Source: a virus (lineage: Duplodnaviria; Heunggongvirae; Uroviricota; Caudoviricetes). Taken from it: a DNA stretch of 9,218 bases. The notes under the pieces are model-generated. The model made no database searches and was not told where the DNA came from. It saw nothing but the letters and a program-made list of their open reading frames with translations. The stretch lies in IMG/VR virus record IMGVR_UViG_2534681649_000003, one strand, 5' to 3'. Positions within the stretch are counted from its first letter, which is position 1, and each line of letters opens with the position of its first letter. The position numbers were made by a program, and so were the translations under genes. Shown in pieces: positions 1,262-9,218 of this stretch.

Positions 1262-2020
1262 TCACTGAGCCGGAGATTCCGGATCAACGGCAATGCTGAC
1301 CACCGTCTCTTCCTGTGGTGGATTCTGTTGCTGGTGGGCGTGAGGCAGCAGCGCAAGATTTTTTGTGCGCTGCTTCAGTATGCTGGTGGCGGTCTGCTCT
1401 CCCGGCACGATGTCGCTTTCACGGTACATTGAGCGGATTTTTTCCGCACGCAACCCCAGCGAACGACGTAATACTGCTTCCGGTAGCGCGTCCGCCACCT
1501 GATTGCGGACCGCCCACCAGGATAATTCAGCCAGAGATAATTCACGCTCCTGCGTACCGCTTATTGCGTGACCGATGACGTCAATCATCCATGCTGACAG
1601 GTTTTGATGAGCAAGTTGCTCGAGTGATTCGGATGTCTGGTCACGCAACTGGTTGTCGCAGTGCCAGCACAACACCATTGCGCCGGTACCATAACGGTGA
1701 ATGACGGTTTCGCTGTGATGATAATCGCCGTGTGGCCACTGGCAGGATTTAATATGGCGCAACAGCCAGTCAGACAATGCACCAGCACCACCAGCAGCAC
1801 GAATCACCCGTGCGTTACTGAAAAACGGCAGCAATGTTTTGTCTTCCACTAGCGGCTGGCGAACGGCAGGAACGACCCCGGACGGCAGATTACGCATGCT
1901 TTTCGGTTCCGGCTCCACCAGTACCCGGGTATTGTGGAATACCGGCATGGATTCACGGCCTGGCTTAAGGACCACCAGCCCGAGTTCCGGAACCAGAACA
2001 GGTCGAAGTAATACCCGCAC
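1262..2020 (-). CDS. Prophage HNH-like protein (tentatively DUF968/YdfU-like), 3'-truncated by IS600; probable pseudogene
   Basis: 252-codon ORF on minus strand whose stop codon (TGA, 1262-1264) is supplied by the last three bases of the IS600 terminus, so the native C-terminus is missing. Contains Cys/His motif CQWPHGDYHH...LCWHCDNQ resembling an HNH/zinc-finger core. GTG start at 2020 directly follows the stop of the upstream ORF. Family name is from memory, not a search. Confidence 0.55.
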   Translation of the reverse strand: MRVLLRPVLVPELGLVVLKPGRESMPVFHNTRVLVEPEPKSMRNLPSGVVPAVRQPLVEDKTLLPFFSNARVIRAAGGAGALSDWLLRHIKSCQWPHGDYHHSETVIHRYGTGAMVLCWHCDNQLRDQTSESLEQLAHQNLSAWMIDVIGHAISGTQERELSLAELSWWAVRNQVADALPEAVLRRSLGLRAEKIRSMYRESDIVPGEQTATSILKQRTKNLALLPHAHQQQNPPQEETVVSIAVDPESPAQ

Positions 2021-3706: not shown

Positions 3707-3715
3707 TCAGGCGGC
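3707..3715. repeat. IS1 target-site duplication, left copy (TCAGGCGGC)
   Basis: Identical 9-bp direct repeat found immediately outside both IS1 ends (3707-3715 and 4484-4492). Confidence 0.9.
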
Positions 3716-3770
3716 GGTAATGCTGCCAACTTACTGATTTAGTGTATGATGGTGATTTTAAGGTGCTTGC

Positions 3771-4046
3771 GTGGCTTCCATTTCCATCAGATGTCCTTCC
3801 TGCTCCGCTACTGAAGGCGTGGTGCGTAACGGCAAAAGCACTGCCGGACATCAGCGCTATCTCTGCTCTCATTGCCGTAAAACATGGCAACTACAGTTCA
3901 CTTACACCGCCTCTCAGCCCGGTACGCACCAGAAAATCATTGATATGGCCATGAATGGCGTCGGATGTCGCGCCAGTGCACGCATTATGGGCGTTGGCCT
4001 CAACACGGTTTTACGTCACTTAAAAAACTCAGGCCGCAGTCGGTAA
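3771..4046 (+). CDS. insA: IS1 InsA (transposition inhibitor / DNA-binding protein)
   Basis: 91-aa product [40 protein letters not shown]... matches IS1 InsA; GTG start; the -1 frameshift motif AAAAAAC (4022-4028) lies near its 3' end. Confidence 0.95.
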
Positions 4047-4072
4047 CCTCGCGCATATAACCGGGCAGTGAT

Positions 4073-4468
4073 GTGATTGTCTGCGCTGAAATGGACGAAC
4101 AGTGGGGCTACGTCGGTGCTAAATCACGTCAGCGCTGGCTGTTTTACGCGTATGACAGGATACGGAGGACGGTTGTGGCGCACGTCTTCGGTGAACGCAC
4201 TCTGGCCACACTGGAGCGTCTTCTGAGCCTGCTGTCGGCCTTTGAGGTCGTGGTATGGATGACGGATGGCTGGCCGCTGTATGAATCACGCCTGAAGGGA
4301 AAGCTGCACGTTATCAGCAAGCGTTACACTCAGCGCATTGAGCGACATAATCTGAATCTGAGACAACATCTGGCAAGGCTGGGACGGAAGTCACTGTCGT
4401 TCTCAAAATCGGTGGAGCTGCATGACAAGGTCATCGGGCATTATCTGAACATAAAACACTATCAGTAA
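4073..4468 (+). CDS. insB: IS1 InsB frame (transposase catalytic part; made as InsAB' fusion by -1 frameshift)
   Basis: Product ...[41 protein letters not shown]... matches IS1 InsB; frame is -1 relative to insA. Confidence 0.9.
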
Positions 4469-4483
4469 GTTGGAGTCATTACC

Positions 4484-4492
4484 TCAGGCGGC
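4484..4492. repeat. IS1 target-site duplication, right copy (TCAGGCGGC)
   Basis: Exact copy of 3707-3715 immediately following the IS1 right end. Confidence 0.9.
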
Positions 4493-4563: not shown

Positions 4564-5019
4564 TTATTCAGTTTTTATTCCTGCTCTCAAAACAGCCTCT
4601 GCCATTCTGATATCCGGATTTTCTGAAATCATCTTTTCCGGCGAGTCGCAATCACCACCACATTCAGTTATGCGTTCATGACCAAAACGAATTGTGGTTT
4701 TGTGCGCATTAATCATTTGTGTAAGCGCATCTGTCAATTCTGCAATGCGTTTGTCTTTAACTTCCAGCTCTTTCAGTAAAGCCAGTACGTCAGGAGCGCT
4801 AACATCAACGACGGTTACGCGCGATTTCAGGTAATGCTCATCCGCAAAAGTTCGACCAGTTTTAAAATATCCATCATCCCCCTCACCTGTGCAGGCATAC
4901 ACAATATGCGTTCTGGAAAATATGCGCTGTATCGACATTTCATCGCCACAAACAGGACATTCCGGCACCTGAATTGGTGAATAACGTTCACGTAATGCCT
5001 GGTAATTAGTCTTGCACAC
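4564..5019 (-). CDS. Hypothetical prophage protein with N-terminal CxxC zinc-ribbon-like motif (151 aa)
   Basis: ORF with GTG start at 5019 preceded by AGGAG (7-nt spacing); contains CPVCG...C and C-terminal ECGGDC cysteine clusters; start overlaps the stop of the upstream gene by 14 nt. Vaguely resembles Ead/Ea22-type lambdoid accessory proteins from memory; unverified. Confidence 0.7.
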   Translation of the reverse strand: MCKTNYQALRERYSPIQVPECPVCGDEMSIQRIFSRTHIVYACTGEGDDGYFKTGRTFADEHYLKSRVTVVDVSAPDVLALLKELEVKDKRIAELTDALTQMINAHKTTIRFGHERITECGGDCDSPEKMISENPDIRMAEAVLRAGIKTE

Positions 5020-5311
5020 TGGCTGTCTCCTGAAAAATCACCGCATGCCCCAGTTTCTCCGCCAGCGCCAGTTCTGCCTTAGCGCCTGCTGACCGCTGCC
5101 AGCCTTTCAGCATGTAAATCGCATCCACACAACGAATCATCGCCATGCAGATATCCATGTACTGCGGCTGTGTCAGCCCGTCCGGAAGTACTGCCGGGTT
5201 TAAGACGGTATGCCCTTCCCGTTTCAGTTCCTCTTCCGCATTGTGAAACGCCTCACGGTTGAAATTTTTATACCCGGTCATTGGACCGGCGATATAGACT
5301 CTCACCCTCAC
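5006..5311 (-). CDS. DUF4406-family protein (nucleoside 2-deoxyribosyltransferase-like fold), prophage accessory gene
   Basis: 101-aa product MRVRVYIAGPMTGYKNFNREAFHNAEEELKREGHTVLNPA... carries the YIAGPMTG...F..A...L...GH.V.NP signature I associate with DUF4406; GTG start at 5311 preceded by AGGAGG; GTGA start/stop overlap with upstream gene. Confidence 0.8.
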   Translation of the reverse strand: MRVRVYIAGPMTGYKNFNREAFHNAEEELKREGHTVLNPAVLPDGLTQPQYMDICMAMIRCVDAIYMLKGWQRSAGAKAELALAEKLGHAVIFQETASVQD

Positions 5312-5730
5312 GCCATCACCTCCTGAAAATTACCCTGATAAAACGACAATATGCGCTGCATAACTTCGCTCTTCCGGCACTCGCGACAGATTATGTTTAG
5401 GCGACTGTCGTAGCGACGTATTTCTCCGTCAGGTAATGACCAGATAAGGTCCGGATCAACCGCAGATGGTTTCTTCAGCTTTGCCCTTGAGAGCTTTTTA
5501 CGGGCATTTTGCCAGTCCTTACGCGCCTGTTCAGACGGGAATAACCCGTAACCAGAGTTGTATACATCGCCACTGGCAACCAGCTCTCTGGCCAGAACGC
5601 TCATCAGATATCTTGTTGCCCCAGTTTTAGCTTCCAGTTGTCGTAACGTCTCGCGCCCACTCTGGCGTACGAGTTCAAGAACCTGCCCTTTAATTTTTTC
5701 CCGCTCTTCTTGTGTAAAAACTTTTGCCAC
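5308..5730 (-). CDS. Hypothetical prophage protein (140 aa), basic, with C-terminal CxxC pair
   Basis: ORF with GTG start at 5730 preceded by AGGAGG; no family recognised. Occupies the position where lambda P / DnaC-like helicase loaders usually sit but does not resemble them. Confidence 0.75.
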   Translation of the reverse strand: MAKVFTQEEREKIKGQVLELVRQSGRETLRQLEAKTGATRYLMSVLARELVASGDVYNSGYGLFPSEQARKDWQNARKKLSRAKLKKPSAVDPDLIWSLPDGEIRRYDSRLNIICRECRKSEVMQRILSFYQGNFQEVMA

Positions 5731-5770
5731 AAGCCCTCCTGAAAATTACCTCATGACCAGAAATTAACAC

Positions 5771-6841
5771 TTACTCCCTGAAGCCCGGCGGAATTTCGTT
5801 ATCCGGTTCAGAAATATGATTCACACAACGCTGGTTGTTCGTGCCGCTTACCGGGAGCAACCAGGGGTTCTCAAAATTCCGGTCCGGTCCAAAAAACGTC
5901 GTCGCTCGCTGAACAAATTCCGTTCCCGTTTTCCCGGTAGCCGCCAGGTATCTTGCGTAACGCCTCACGCCATCCAGCATGGCCTCTGGTGGCACCCCCT
6001 CGCGTAATCTGGCCTTCCAGGCACTGAAAGCGGATTTCTTCGGGTTTGCCCCGGCACGCAACGGGTACTCCCGCCAGACCTGTTCGAACACATCCGGATA
6101 ATCCACTCGTCCCACAGACTGCCCGGTGTTTTCCGGGACTACCCGATCGGCTTCCCGCTGAATGGCGGAATCGGCTTCAGGCTGCTGCAGTTGGTGTGAT
6201 TGCTCCGGACTTGCGGTCATCGCCTGCTGCACAGCGCCCGAATCGGCTTTCAGCGCATACGCTGAATCGGCTTCCGGTGTCGTGCCTGCTGGCTGACCAG
6301 GATTGACGGTCTGAACATCCCCTGCCTGGTTCGTGGCGTTTTTTACGCCATGGACCATAGTGTTTTGATCTTCTTGATCTGTATCTTTATCTGTATCTTT
6401 ATCTGTCGTGACTCGTCGTGACATGTGCGTGACATATCGTGACGCGCCGTGACAATCGCCATTTTGTTCCCGCTTTCTTTCCCTCTCTCGCTGCGCCCTC
6501 TTGCGCTCTGCAGGAGATTTTGCGGTTTGCGAAATATTGCCGTTGTCCTCTTTCAGCACCTGGCGTTTTTCCCATCCAGTGATTAAATCACCATCAAGTA
6601 CCCGCCCCTGCATCGTCTGCAAAATTGAATCAATTACCTCTTCTGTCACGTCGAGCGCACTTGCCAAATCTTCTGTCGTGACATCAATGTGACCTCGCGT
6701 GACATTTCGTGACGCGCTCACCAGGAGGTGGATATACACTGCCATCACTGTTGCAATTGGCTGCCCTGACACCCTGGCAATTGTTCGCCACTTAGGGTCA
6801 TTTGGCATGTCATGCCATAATCTGAGCCAGGCGTTAGCCAT
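5771..6841 (-). CDS. Putative phage replication initiation protein (lambda O-like position), 356 aa
   Basis: Long ORF directly downstream of the cro-like and YdaT-like genes; preferred start ATG 6839-6841 (MANAWLRLWHDMPNDPKW...) with SD AGAGGTGA. The coding sequence contains phased DNA repeat arrays (see repeat features), as ori-lambda does inside gene O. Functional call is by synteny and repeats, not recognised homology. Confidence 0.75.
   Translation of the reverse strand: MANAWLRLWHDMPNDPKWRTIARVSGQPIATVMAVYIHLLVSASRNVTRGHIDVTTEDLASALDVTEEVIDSILQTMQGRVLDGDLITGWEKRQVLKEDNGNISQTAKSPAERKRAQRERERKREQNGDCHGASRYVTHMSRRVTTDKDTDKDTDQEDQNTMVHGVKNATNQAGDVQTVNPGQPAGTTPEADSAYALKADSGAVQQAMTASPEQSHQLQQPEADSAIQREADRVVPENTGQSVGRVDYPDVFEQVWREYPLRAGANPKKSAFSAWKARLREGVPPEAMLDGVRRYARYLAATGKTGTEFVQRATTFFGPDRNFENPWLLPVSGTNNQRCVNHISEPDNEIPPGFRE
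6146..6273. repeat. Four copies of ATCGGCTT (GAATCGGCTT context) spaced 24/72/24 bp inside the replication gene
   Basis: Copies at 6146, 6170, 6242, 6266; spacing in multiples of 3 and 24, encoding repeated (P)EADS(A) peptide units on the minus strand. Confidence 0.7.
6377..6453. repeat. Candidate origin-type repeat block: tandem 12-bp ATCTGTATCTTT (x2 plus partial) followed by five CGTGAC repeats at 10-11 bp phasing
   Basis: ATCTGTATCTTT at 6377-6388 and 6389-6400; CGTGAC at 6407, 6417, 6428, 6438, 6448 (spacing 10, 11, 10, 10). Two GATC sites lie just upstream (6367-6370, 6376-6379). The repeat is read in all three codon phases (CHG, ASR, YVT, MSR, VT), so it is constrained at the DNA level. 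Confidence 0.6.
6645..6713. repeat. Second phased GTGAC array (four direct copies at 10-11 bp spacing plus one inverted copy)
   Basis: GTGAC at 6678, 6689, 6699, 6709 (spacing 11, 10, 10), each in a TCGTGAC-like context; inverted GTCACG at 6645-6650; TTCTGTC precedes two copies. Confidence 0.6.
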
Positions 6842-6912: not shown

Positions 6913-7338
6913 TCAATGCACAGCCACAATATTTCCTGCAGGGCCACCACGATTCATCTGGTTGAAACCAGCGATCGCCACTGCGACAAAATCATCAGCG
7001 TCTCTCACCAGTCGTTCCCGCGTCTCCACTAGTTCCCGAAAATAGGCTGAGCTATGGCTGCGCATTCGGGCCACCAGCAGAGGTGGCATTGCTTTTTCGA
7101 TAGCTGGTAACAACGCCTGAATTTTTTTAAGCGCATCAGGGGTGTCTTTCTCCACCCAGCGGAAAATTTTCTGAGTATTGCGAGCCAGGGCTTCCGGATG
7201 GCTGTCGTCATACAGTTCCGGGAACGTCATTCCCAGCTCGAAATACGCTTTGGTAATTTTCGCAGCCGGTACTTTTTCGCCGTCCGGATGCGCCCAGGCA
7301 TTCATCGCCATGCGGATGTGTTCATGCTTGATTTTCAT
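6913..7338 (-). CDS. YdaT-like (CII-position) prophage regulatory protein, 141 aa
   Basis: Begins MKIKHEHI..., which I recall as the N-terminus of Rac prophage YdaT; sits immediately after the cro-like gene with ATGA start/stop overlap (7335-7338), the position of cII/ydaT in lambdoid early-right operons. Confidence 0.7.
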   Translation of the reverse strand: MKIKHEHIRMAMNAWAHPDGEKVPAAKITKAYFELGMTFPELYDDSHPEALARNTQKIFRWVEKDTPDALKKIQALLPAIEKAMPPLLVARMRSHSSAYFRELVETRERLVRDADDFVAVAIAGFNQMNRGGPAGNIVAVH

Positions 7339-7589
7339 GAATCAACTCCCATCAGCTTTTTCGTAGTAGTTTTATTCCTGCCAATAGTTAAAATTGCATC
7401 GGCAGAAAATAATCCGTTTGATGCAAGAGCGATTTTTTCAGCGTAATTTGTTTCGCCGGTATATTCTGTGCGAGGCAATTTTCCGTTATCCATCCATTTA
7501 TAGATTGCTCTTTGGCTGACACCACAAACGTCGGCCACAACAGCAACGCGAACAGTTTTGATTACATCTTCAAGTGTTTTCTGGTTCAT
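7335..7589 (-). CDS. Cro/YdaS-like small HTH regulator (84 aa)
   Basis: Preferred start ATG 7587-7589 (MNQKTLEDVIKTV...) with SD GAGG 5 nt upstream; HTH-like segment ...VADVCGVSQRAIYKWMDNGKLP...; divergent from the repressor gene. The ORF-track start at 7661 has no SD and overlaps the operator region. Confidence 0.75.
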   Translation of the reverse strand: MNQKTLEDVIKTVRVAVVADVCGVSQRAIYKWMDNGKLPRTEYTGETNYAEKIALASNGLFSADAILTIGRNKTTTKKLMGVDS

Positions 7590-7668
7590 ATCACCCTCAC
7601 AATGTGAACTTTGAGTACATGCTATAACAGAACTGACAGTACATTCAAGAGCGAATATCATTGAACTT
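7590..7668. promoter_or_regulatory. Divergent promoter/operator region (OR-like) between cro-like and repressor genes
   Basis: Plus strand: -35 CTGACA (7633-7638), 17-nt spacer, -10 TATCAT (7656-7661), predicted start at or next to the ATG at 7669 (leaderless repressor mRNA, as for lambda PRM). Minus strand: -35 TTGAAT (plus 7643-7648), 16-nt spacer, -10 TATAGC (plus 7621-7626) for the cro-like gene. Two direct AGTACAT copies (7614-7620, 7638-7644) overlap these elements. Confidence 0.55.
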
Positions 7669-8088
7669 ATGGTTCATGAAGATAAAGCGCGTAAAGAGTT
7701 CGCCAGTAGGCTTGCGCTAGCCTGTGAAAACGCTGGTTATGAACAACATGGAAGGCAGGCAGAAATTGCCCGTCGAATGAAATTAACACCAAAAGCGGTT
7801 AGCAAATGGTTTAATGGCGAAACAATTCCTCGCCGGGAGAAATTAAGGGAATTAGCAACACTAATAGGAACAACACCAACCTATCTTTTGGGAGAGGATA
7901 CAGAAGAAAGTGGACAGGTACGTTTCTATCAGGAGTTAAATCCAAGACAAAAAATCATCATTGACCTTCTGGACGAGCTCCCTGACAGTGAGACAGATGA
8001 ACTTTTAAAAACTCTTGAAGAGAAAAAACAGAAGTACAATGCAATTTACGAAGAGTTAGCACGAAAGAAAAAACAAAAAGCCTCTTAA
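7669..8088 (+). CDS. CI/DicA-like prophage repressor (XRE-family HTH, no S24 peptidase domain), 139 aa
   Basis: HTH_3-type motif ...RQAEIARRMKLTPKAVSKWFNGETIPRREKLRELATLIGTTPTYLLGE...; acidic/basic C-terminal tail but no LexA-like Ala-Gly/Ser-Lys cleavage module; divergent from the cro-like gene; no SD before the ATG. Confidence 0.85.
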   Translation: MVHEDKARKEFASRLALACENAGYEQHGRQAEIARRMKLTPKAVSKWFNGETIPRREKLRELATLIGTTPTYLLGEDTEESGQVRFYQELNPRQKIIIDLLDELPDSETDELLKTLEEKKQKYNAIYEELARKKKQKAS

Positions 8089-8406: not shown

Positions 8407-8845
8407 TAATGACTCCAACTTACTGATAGTGTTTTATGTTCAGATAATGCCCGATGACCTTGTCATGCAGCTCCACCGATTTTGAGAACGACAGTGACTT
8501 CCGTCCCAGCCTTGCCAGATGTTGTCTCAGATTCAGATTATGTCGCTCAATGCGCTGAGTGTAACGCTTGCTGATAACGTGCAGCTTTCCCTTCAGGCGT
8601 GATTCATACAGCGGCCAGCCATCCGTCATCCATACCACGACCTCAAAGGCCGACAGCAGGCTCAGAAGACGCTCCAGTGTGGCCAGAGTGCGTTCACCGA
8701 AGACGTGCGCCACAACCGTCCTCCGTATCCTGTCATACGCGTAAAACAGCCAGCGCTGACGTGATTTAGCACCGACGTAGCCCCACTGTTCGTCCATTTC
8801 AGCGCAGACAATCACATCACTGCCCGGTTGTATGCGCGAGGTTAC
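8405..8845 (-). mobile_element. IS1 remnant, inverted relative to the first copy, truncated at IS1 position ~328 by IS2
   Basis: Begins with the IS1 insB-proximal terminal repeat GGTAATGACTCCAACTTACTGAT at 8405; spot-checked segments are identical to the first copy, with one mismatch found (copy 1 position 4058 T vs C here at 8830); IS1 homology stops at 8845, where an IS2 terminus begins. Confidence 0.9.
8420..8815 (-). CDS. insB: IS1 insB frame in truncated copy (no insA, so no functional InsAB' transposase)
   Basis: Protein identical to InsB of the first copy over its length; the ORF-track product extends upstream as an artefactual read-through into the IS2 end. Confidence 0.8.
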
Positions 8846-9218
8846 TGGATTTGCCCCTATATTTCCAGACATCTGTTATCACTTAACCCATTACAAGCCC
8901 GCTGCCGCAGATATTCCCGTGGCGAGCGATAACCCAGCGCACTATGCGGATGCCATTCGTTATAATGCTCGAACGCCTCTGCAAGGTTCTTTGCTGCCGT
9001 TAACCCGTCTGGTTTGGGCATGATACTGATGTAGTCACGCTTTATCGTTTTCACGAAGCTCTCTGCTATTCCGTTACTCTCCGGACTCCGCACCGCCGTG
9101 TTCTTCGGTTCAAGTCCCAACATCCGGGCGAACTGGCGTGTTTCATTAGCCCGGTAGCATGAACCATTATCCGTCAGCCACTCCACTGGAGACGACGGAA
9201 GATCGTTGCCGAAGCGGC
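8846..9218 (-). mobile_element. IS2 right end (partial; continues beyond window)
   Basis: Starts with TGGATTTGCCCCTATATTTCCAGACATCTGTTATCACTTAACC, the reverse complement of the IS2 right terminal repeat as I recall it, followed by the C-terminal coding region of the IS2 transposase. Confidence 0.85.
8857..9218 (-). CDS. insD: IS2 transposase OrfB (InsD) C-terminal portion; N-terminus outside window
   Basis: Translation ...[119 protein letters not shown] matches the IS2 InsD C-terminus; frame is open to the window edge. Confidence 0.85.

Follow-up and report, generated by a model that had tools for sequence, protein, structure and literature searches.

A Ren-like gene, a DUF4406 gene and an Ead/Ea22-family gene downstream of the replication initiator of a Rac/Qin-type prophage

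Three overlapping genes behind a replication initiator

The stretch of DNA analysed here, referred to as the window, is the Caudoviricetes record IMGVR_UViG_2534681649_000003 with a length of 9,218 nucleotides (nt), which is part of a defective lambdoid prophage of the Rac/Qin type that is riddled with insertion sequences (IS). Downstream of the replication initiator gene of this prophage, three intact and overlapping open reading frames (ORFs) of 140, 101 and 151 codons are situated on the minus strand between positions 4564 and 5730. A first-pass annotation, made from the sequence without database searches, had recognised this trio correctly and had described it as an accessory cassette which stands in place of a helicase loader and might constitute an uncharacterised system. 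According to the explanation that we regard as likely when it is taken as a whole, the region represents the "ren plus nin-like" stretch of the early-right operon, and the trio is composed of ordinary, separately shuffled early genes of a Rac/Qin-type prophage, namely a homologue of lambda Ren, a DUF4406 enzyme and an Ead/Ea22 protein.

All three genes begin with GTG, as annotated, and a Shine-Dalgarno sequence is located 5-8 nt upstream of each start, which reads AGGAGG in case of the 140-aa and 101-aa genes (aa, amino acids) and AGGAGA in case of the 151-aa gene. The tight coupling proposed for the trio is borne out by a GTGA stop/start overlap of 4 nt at 5308-5311 and by an overlap of 14 nt at 5006-5019. 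Most homologues of the DUF4406 protein start at the equivalent of the second GTG (codon 3), and the overlap of this gene with the preceding one could instead be a gap of 2 nt; the Shine-Dalgarno spacing speaks for the first GTG. The trio is distinguished from chance ORFs by strong family matches and by lengths and start points that agree with those of the homologues. Pseudogenes were rejected due to the intact ORFs, and a toxin-antitoxin pair was rejected due to the lack of matching families. ORFs on the plus strand of the trio region are short and without matches.

An 11-nt motif, ATTTTCAGGAG, occurs in three copies in the window (at most one mismatch), and these copies are located solely before the three starts of the trio (Table 1). 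By chance, 0.17 copies are expected, and none of 200 shuffled sequences yielded three. The second copy was also found in four relatives (L001, L002, L005 and L090), and in L002 the motif of the third copy stands before another downstream gene. The motif may serve both as ribosome-binding site and as short homology for the swapping of genes at their boundaries. A longer shared form, GGT(A/G)ATTTT(T)CAGGAG, was observed before all three starts.

All early-right genes are encoded on the minus strand in the order cro-like gene, YdaT/CII-like gene, initiator gene and trio. No minus-strand terminator was found inside the trio, and promoter-like matches within it did not exceed the number expected by chance, the sole minus-strand match being situated at the extreme 3' end of the last gene. 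Therefore, the trio is most simply considered part of the cro-initiator transcript. Its members would represent three independent early genes that are expressed with the initiator gene under the cro-side promoter, their translation being coupled.

Families and predicted folds of the encoded proteins

The 140-aa protein is indeed basic, as had been noted (isoelectric point (pI) 9.69; 26 Lys and Arg vs. 18 Asp and Glu residues). It matches Pfam DUF977 (PF06163) over its full length (E 3e-30, 105 bits, cut-off 22.1) as well as phrog_142, "Ren-like exclusion protein" (E 7e-47), which is also matched by Ren from the lambda record at 1.6e-41. A DUF977 profile of 20 diverse proteins was aligned by hhalign to lambda Ren residues 16-93 with 95% probability and an E-value of 3e-8; the alignment spans the helix-turn-helix region and the C-terminal motif N-x2-C-x-E-C-R-x-S-x2-M-x-R. 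Judged by these profile matches, the 140-aa protein is a homologue of lambda Ren. According to the prediction, an N-terminal winged-helix domain is connected through a disordered basic linker to a conserved C-terminal helix and motif. DUF977 is a narrow family with 100 representatives at 50% identity among 1.8 billion proteins, and its sole occurrence in the literature searched is a 2009 paper on Fido, where it appears as a winged-helix domain fused to Fic. The label "LygF" in phage records is a gene name inherited from Salmonella annotation with no function attached.

Lambda ren protects the phage from Rex exclusion. In the supplement of Thomason et al. (2021, bioRxiv 10.1101/2021.04.19.439022), it is given as the third, co-translated gene of O-P-ren, and a ren gene is ascribed to every initiator-loader module. 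According to the same preprint, lambda ren mutants grow poorly on Rex+ lysogens, this defect is suppressed by mutations in O and P, and interactions of RexA and RexB with O and Ren were detected by two-hybrid assay (10.1101/2021.04.19.439022). By analogy with lambda, the 140-aa protein would be the Ren equivalent of the prophage, a DNA- or complex-binding accessory at or near the replication-initiation complex, which would keep this complex from setting off a Rex-type abortive infection. It would not load the helicase itself, and its gene would be inherited together with the initiator gene. The protection from Rex is thus transferred from lambda and is to be read as presumed.

For the 101-aa protein the annotated DUF4406 label is sound (Pfam PF14359, E 9e-38, 129 bits, cut-off 22). 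A nucleoside 2-deoxyribosyltransferase (NDT)-like fold, suggested beforehand as worth checking, was recovered by structure prediction: the model derived from 43 homologues (predicted local distance difference test (pLDDT) 90.5, predicted template modelling score (pTM) 0.84) matches MilB, nucleoside 2-deoxyribosyltransferases and Rcl, and displays the three-layer alpha/beta fold of these proteins. Among the 43 homologues, a glycine of the first loop, S74, G76, A77 and E80 are invariant. The stretch S74-A-G76-A77-K-A-E80 starts in the model at the helix that follows strand 64-67. In NDT and Rcl, an S/D-x-G-x3-E motif after the fourth strand contains the catalytic glutamate, and E80 is a candidate for the equivalent residue. 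Searching PDB sequences with the DUF4406 profile retrieved no NDT, and a hit to a sulfhydrylase (E 0.009) was judged spurious. A fusion of DUF4406 to MazG or dCMP deaminase, to which phage annotations seemed to point, was set aside as evidence, since Mycobacterium phage Ariel and Arthrobacter phage Cote encode stand-alone proteins of about 125 aa with inconsistent labels. Literature on DUF4406 is confined to passing annotations, and for PF14359 and DUF1937 nothing was found. The 101-aa protein is probably a minimal enzyme of the NDT/Rcl/MilB fold. Its putative N-glycosidic activity, cleavage or transfer at the bond between base and sugar of a (deoxy)nucleoside or nucleotide, would adjust nucleotide pools during lytic growth.

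The 151-aa protein matches Pfam Ead_Ea22 (PF13935; E 4e-20, 73 bits, cut-off 27) with residues 4-105, corresponding to profile positions 3-90 of 139. In an alignment of 24 Ead-like homologues conservation extends over the first ~90 residues, in which C21, C24, C43 and H62 hardly vary, and the C-terminal halves form a mosaic of unrelated segments, many of which end in a short tail GI(K/R)..E. The 151-aa protein consists of a conserved N-terminal module of ~90 aa, a predicted coiled-coil stretch and a short variable C-terminal part with the family-typical tail GIK..E. An E. coli protein of equal length is 99% identical. The annotation as a zinc ribbon holds in part: C21, C24, C43 and H62 form a possible Cys3-His metal site, as far as can be read from their conservation, but a classic CxxC...CxxC ribbon is absent, a single CxxC being conserved. 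Zinc-ribbon Pfam models gave weak hits below threshold at residues 9-33. For lambda Ea22 a tetramer composed of an N-terminal part, a coiled coil and a C-terminal domain has been described, which favours lysogeny (PMC10834534). By analogy, the 151-aa protein is probably an oligomeric factor that would bind a host protein and bias the decision between lysis and lysogeny.

Gene order, helicase loading and alternative explanations

A total of 5426 complete E. coli genomes was surveyed with the 1167-nt trio as query, and the trio was counted as whole if at least 80% of it was found in one place. Some part of it is present in 4227 of these genomes, with a median of 2 places per genome, and the whole trio in 19. 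In a set of 80 viral contigs carrying a close relative of the Ren-like gene, an initiator gene is located upstream at a fixed distance of 40 nt in 59 out of 78 loci and belongs to either of two initiator types (26 and 33 loci). In the other 19 loci, the Ren-like gene has as upstream neighbour a DUF1627 gene, which in turn stands behind a DnaC-like or P-like loader gene. Downstream of the Ren-like gene, the DUF4406 gene was observed in 14 of about 74 loci, always with an overlap of -4 nt, rac21 in 12, a third family in 25 and unknown genes elsewhere; the full trio occurs in about 5 of the 80 loci. Similarly, starting from the C-terminal half of the initiator, a Ren-like gene was found at 37-40 nt in 67 out of 69 loci, followed by a DUF4406 gene in 9, and the trio was complete in 5. 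In E. coli FDAARGOS_944, a further initiator precedes a copy of the trio with 99.9% identity. DUF4406 on its own was found in 519 phage records, the hosts of which include Vibrio, Arthrobacter, Gordonia, Mycobacterium and Pseudomonas. The Ren-like gene thus belongs with the replication module, and the DUF4406 and Ead genes are interchangeable nin-like passengers.

Due to this independent assortment the terms "cassette" and "uncharacterised system" do not apply. The presumption that the slot holds host-interaction, anti-defence or exclusion genes was reasonable insofar as one of the three belongs to the anti-exclusion family of lambda Ren, but no match to a defence-system profile was obtained: in PADLOC-DB 2.0 no family was hit at E<=0.01 by any of the trio proteins or the initiator. 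An NCBIfam scan of the three proteins returned no match, and PDB sequence searches with each of them nothing meaningful. It is very improbable that the three genes form one anti-defence or exclusion system, in which, e.g., a sensor that binds DNA, an effector that cleaves nucleotides and an adaptor that binds zinc would cooperate. Such a system would have to be reconciled with the 19 genomes with a contiguous trio among the thousands that carry parts of it, with a neighbour of the Ren-like gene that is usually another one, with hundreds of unrelated phages that possess DUF4406 only, and with the mosaic and widespread nature of the Ead-like genes. Tight overlaps are the norm in such operons, e.g., the overlap of -4 nt with rac21 in 12 out of 12 loci. 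Of the two observations that would have spoken against the first-pass reading, one was made, i.e., the confident homology of the 140-aa protein to the product of the third gene in the lambda replication operon. The other, a restriction of all three genes to replication modules, was not made, since the other two genes are not tied to such modules.

The initiator, encoded 40 nt upstream of the Ren-like gene, matches phrog_3729 (E 1e-254), and its C-terminal half matches phrog_1701, "DnaD-like helicase loader". Its last 24 aa (codons 5774-5845, minus strand), ..VNHISEPDNEIPPGFRE, share 14 out of 24 identities with the C-terminus of E. coli DnaT, ..VNTVSEPDSQIPPGFRG (BLASTP, E 6e-7), with the common consensus ..SEPD..IPPGFR. 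The same DnaT-like tail is found at the end of K-12 YdaU, of gp15 of Shigella phage 75/02 Stx and of the lambda-O-like initiators of mEp460_ev081 and HannyBb. The N-terminal halves of these DnaT-tailed initiators are unrelated, and some of their genes are followed by a phage dnaC gene, others are not. PriA-PriB load DnaB-DnaC by way of the primosome protein DnaT (PMC13220808). In E. coli dnaT adjoins dnaC, as ydaU adjoins ydaV in Rac. Since the tail of the initiator copies DnaT, which brings in DnaB-DnaC, we propose that the initiator would imitate DnaT to capture DnaC-DnaB, using the DnaC of the host when the phage has none; recruitment of the host DnaC-DnaB via the tail is, from this sequence likeness, probable. 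The initiator gene contains an array of three tandem 12-nt repeats (TCTTKATCTGTM, 6372-6407) and, behind it, a cluster of repeats with CGTGAC (6406-6454), the stretch being strongly AT-skewed. The repeats between 6372 and 6454 are probably the iterons of a replication origin located within the initiator gene, as in lambda O.

The first-pass annotation noted correctly that a loader gene is missing: tblastn of E. coli DnaC, YdaV, the DnaC-like protein of 75/02, lambda P and a P-like protein against the window gave no match at E<=1. Searches of the trio proteins against Pfam and PHROG yielded no loader hit, a comparison of the DUF977 profile with lambda P by hhalign resulted in a probability of 0.7%, and neither an AAA+ nor a P-type fold was seen, the model of the 140-aa protein being a plain winged helix. 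Except for this absence, the idea of a slot "in place of" a loader does not hold, because elsewhere the Ren-like gene, sometimes together with DUF4406 and Ead genes, follows DnaC-like or P-like loader genes. In the isolated phages mEp460_ev081 and HannyBb the order is cro, CII-like gene, initiator gene and Ren-like gene, with no loader gene. Therefore, the loader-less state is functional and not a gap filled by the trio; it is the normal state of this module type.

It is tempting to assign the missing role to the Ren-like DUF977 protein, which would then be the helicase-recruitment partner, a functional analogue of lambda P with a new fold. The fixed position 37-40 nt behind the initiator gene in 67 out of 69 loci, with a junction common to initiators with different N-terminal domains, the isolated phages that combine initiator and Ren-like gene with no recognisable loader, and a suspected replication role of Ren, whose mutant suppressors map in O and P according to the preprint cited above (10.1101/2021.04.19.439022), would agree with such a function. 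However, Ren-like genes are also present after DnaC-like and P-like loader genes, DUF977 lacks similarity to lambda P and DnaC, the predicted fold is unremarkable, and lambda ren mutants are described as viable outside Rex+ hosts in the same source (10.1101/2021.04.19.439022). Moreover, the host DnaC-DnaB could be reached more simply through the DnaT-like tail of the initiator. We consider the recruitment role of DUF977 quite improbable. The same low expectation applies to a milder version, in which the DUF977 protein of loader-less Rac/Qin modules would act as a winged-helix adaptor that helps the DnaT-tailed initiator to bring the host DnaB-DnaC to the origin. If true, this version would provide a molecular role for the lambda Ren family and account for the regular occurrence of ren genes at the end of replication modules. 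Functionless decay of the three genes also appears unlikely. The prophage is defective and rich in IS elements, including two copies of IS1 (3717-4483 and near 8420-8872), an IS3-family element (65-1221) that truncates a DUF968 gene, and a transposase fragment (8857-9186). The ORFs of the trio, however, are of full length and 99% identical to widespread proteins, no frameshifts or premature stops were seen in comparison with their homologues, and their start regions are intact, with IS1 inserted outside of them in an intergenic spacer.

Several points weigh against the reading of the trio as a Ren homologue, a DUF4406 enzyme and an Ead/Ea22 protein with the activities proposed above. The loci of the neighbourhood analysis are close relatives (at least 92% identity), and their linkage counts reflect common descent more than independent events. 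Homology to Ren is distant, pairwise BLAST against lambda Ren detecting just the 20-aa C-terminal motif, and a linker of ~45 aa in the 140-aa protein is absent in lambda Ren. The presumed role in Rex protection would require hosts that meet a Rex-type system. Recruitment of the host DnaC is read from identity over ~20 residues, and E80 was designated as putative catalytic glutamate by motif and overall fold match, not by residue-level superposition, in a protein that at 101 aa is much shorter than the characterised enzymes of this fold. The functions proposed for all three proteins are carried over from families for which no mechanism has been worked out. What the analysis shows are the structure of the genes, their families, the folds and the statistics of gene order; all biochemical activities are inferred.

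Read as separately shuffled early genes, the trio is a rare constellation of independent parts. Its families are common in prophages of E. coli and Shigella, and the finding matters little as it stands. Annotations as DUF977/Ren-like, DUF4406 and Ead/Ea22-like already exist in public databases, and the same proteins occur with 99% identity in E. coli and Shigella. The useful result is a negative one, i.e., judged by gene order and PADLOC-DB profiles, the slot is not a hidden defence or anti-defence system. Two aspects reach beyond the trio: the Ren family is very tightly linked to initiator genes, yet has no known mechanism, and the DnaT tail copy at the end of initiators whose DNA-binding domains are unrelated hints at the way in which the host DnaB-DnaC is captured by loader-less lambdoid phages.

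Prophage context and comparison with known systems

The closest database copies were obtained from Shigella, with a protein of S. boydii and a locus of S. flexneri at 99% identity each. Among species-representative genomes searched with the C-terminal half of the initiator, a single locus was found, in Shigella flexneri at 99% identity. Because of the dense IS elements and these nearest copies, the window points to a Shigella genome. The complete IS1 element is flanked by a 9-bp target duplication, TCAGGCGGC, at 3708-3716 and 4484-4492, and is inserted in an intergenic spacer; the uninterrupted site is present in E. coli FDAARGOS_944, as seen in an alignment. This IS1 separates the trio from the remaining nin-like region. 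Further features are listed in Table 1. The hok/sok-type locus comprises a Hok-family ORF of 70 aa (2467-2679) and a sok antitoxin RNA identified with Rfam (2617-2792, 115.6 bits).

Table 1. Positions of genes, start motifs and mobile elements in the window.
Feature	Position	Strand	Remark
IS3-family element	65-1221	plus	two ORFs, 65-367 and 403-1221; truncates DUF968/HNH-like gene
DUF968/HNH-like gene	1262-2020		cut off by IS3-family element
hok/sok-type toxin-antitoxin locus	2467-2792	minus	
Prophage gene, 138 aa	3274-3690		next gene beyond Ead-like gene, across IS1-bearing spacer
IS1, complete	3717-4483	plus	72 nt downstream of stop codon of Ead-like gene
Ead/Ea22-family gene, 151 aa	4564-5019	minus	
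DUF4406 gene, 101 aa	5006-5311	minus	
Motif copy 3, TTTTTCAGGAG	5027-5037	minus	inside 3' end of DUF4406 gene (encodes ..IFQE..), before Ead-like gene
Ren-family gene (DUF977/"LygF"/phrog_142), 140 aa	5308-5730	minus	pI 9.7
Motif copy 2	5320-5330	minus	inside 3' end of Ren-like gene (encodes ..NFQE..), before DUF4406 gene
Motif copy 1, ATTTTCAGGAG	5736-5746	minus	includes Shine-Dalgarno sequence; before Ren-like gene
Replication initiator/replisome organizer gene, ORF of 358 aa	5771-6847	minus	likely start is ATG at codon 3
YdaT/CII-like gene	6913-7338	minus	
cro-like gene	7335-7661	minus	early-right gene order
Repressor-like helix-turn-helix gene	7669-8088		orientation opposite to early-right genes
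IS1, second copy	8420-8872	minus	opposite orientation; InsB-like ORF identical over 131 aa to ORF at 4073-4468
Integrase-core transposase fragment	8857-9186	minus	

Compared with lambda, the 140-aa protein and Ren fall into the same PHROG and display profile-level homology over the winged helix and the C-terminal N..ECR.S..M.R.L motif. In the rightward early operon, both genes come immediately behind the replication genes, with close coupling to their upstream neighbour, and the position of the gene in the window parallels the order O-P-ren-nin of the lambda map. In contrast to lambda Ren with 96 aa, the 140-aa protein possesses an additional helix as well as a basic disordered linker, and its C-terminal motif includes C-x2-C owing to a second Cys. 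Furthermore, its gene directly follows the initiator gene with no P gene in between.

The members of the NDT-like superfamily with solved structures, i.e., NDT, Rcl/DNPH1, the cytidine monophosphate (CMP) hydrolase MilB and the DUF1937 structure 1t1j, comprise 125-165 aa vs. 101 aa for the DUF4406 protein. The latter shares 16-24% identity with them and is assigned to a Pfam family of its own. Similar to lambda Ea22 and P22 Ead, the 151-aa protein combines a conserved N-terminal module with a coiled-coil-like segment and a variable C-terminal part, and among lambdoid phages of E. coli and Salmonella the family shows a mosaic composition. Unlike lambda ea22, which lies in the leftward exo-xis region, the gene of the window belongs to the rightward nin-like region; here as well as in Rac-SA53 it follows the replication genes in the rightward operon. 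By sequence comparison, its short C-terminal part is unrelated to the Ea22 C-terminal domain solved by nuclear magnetic resonance (NMR).

The closest resemblance in gene order is given by Rac-type modules. In Rac-SA53 (L005) the trio occurs in the same order (ydaU-ydaV-ydaW-lygF-rac19-ead), with 93% identity for the DUF4406 protein, and in the ydaU-ydaV-ydaW module of K-12 YdaU ends in the same DnaT-like tail as the initiator of the window. In both Rac-type modules, a DnaC-like or P-like loader gene and a DUF1627 gene are situated between the initiator gene and the Ren-like gene, whereas the window has neither. The product annotated as "ydaV" in Rac-SA53 (4727-5188, 153 aa) is not DnaC-like and weakly resembles lambda P (25% over 113 aa, E 7e-6); Rac-type modules therefore use at least two loader types, or none. 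In Shigella phage 75/02 Stx, the Ren-like gene is found after a DnaC-like loader gene and without DUF4406.

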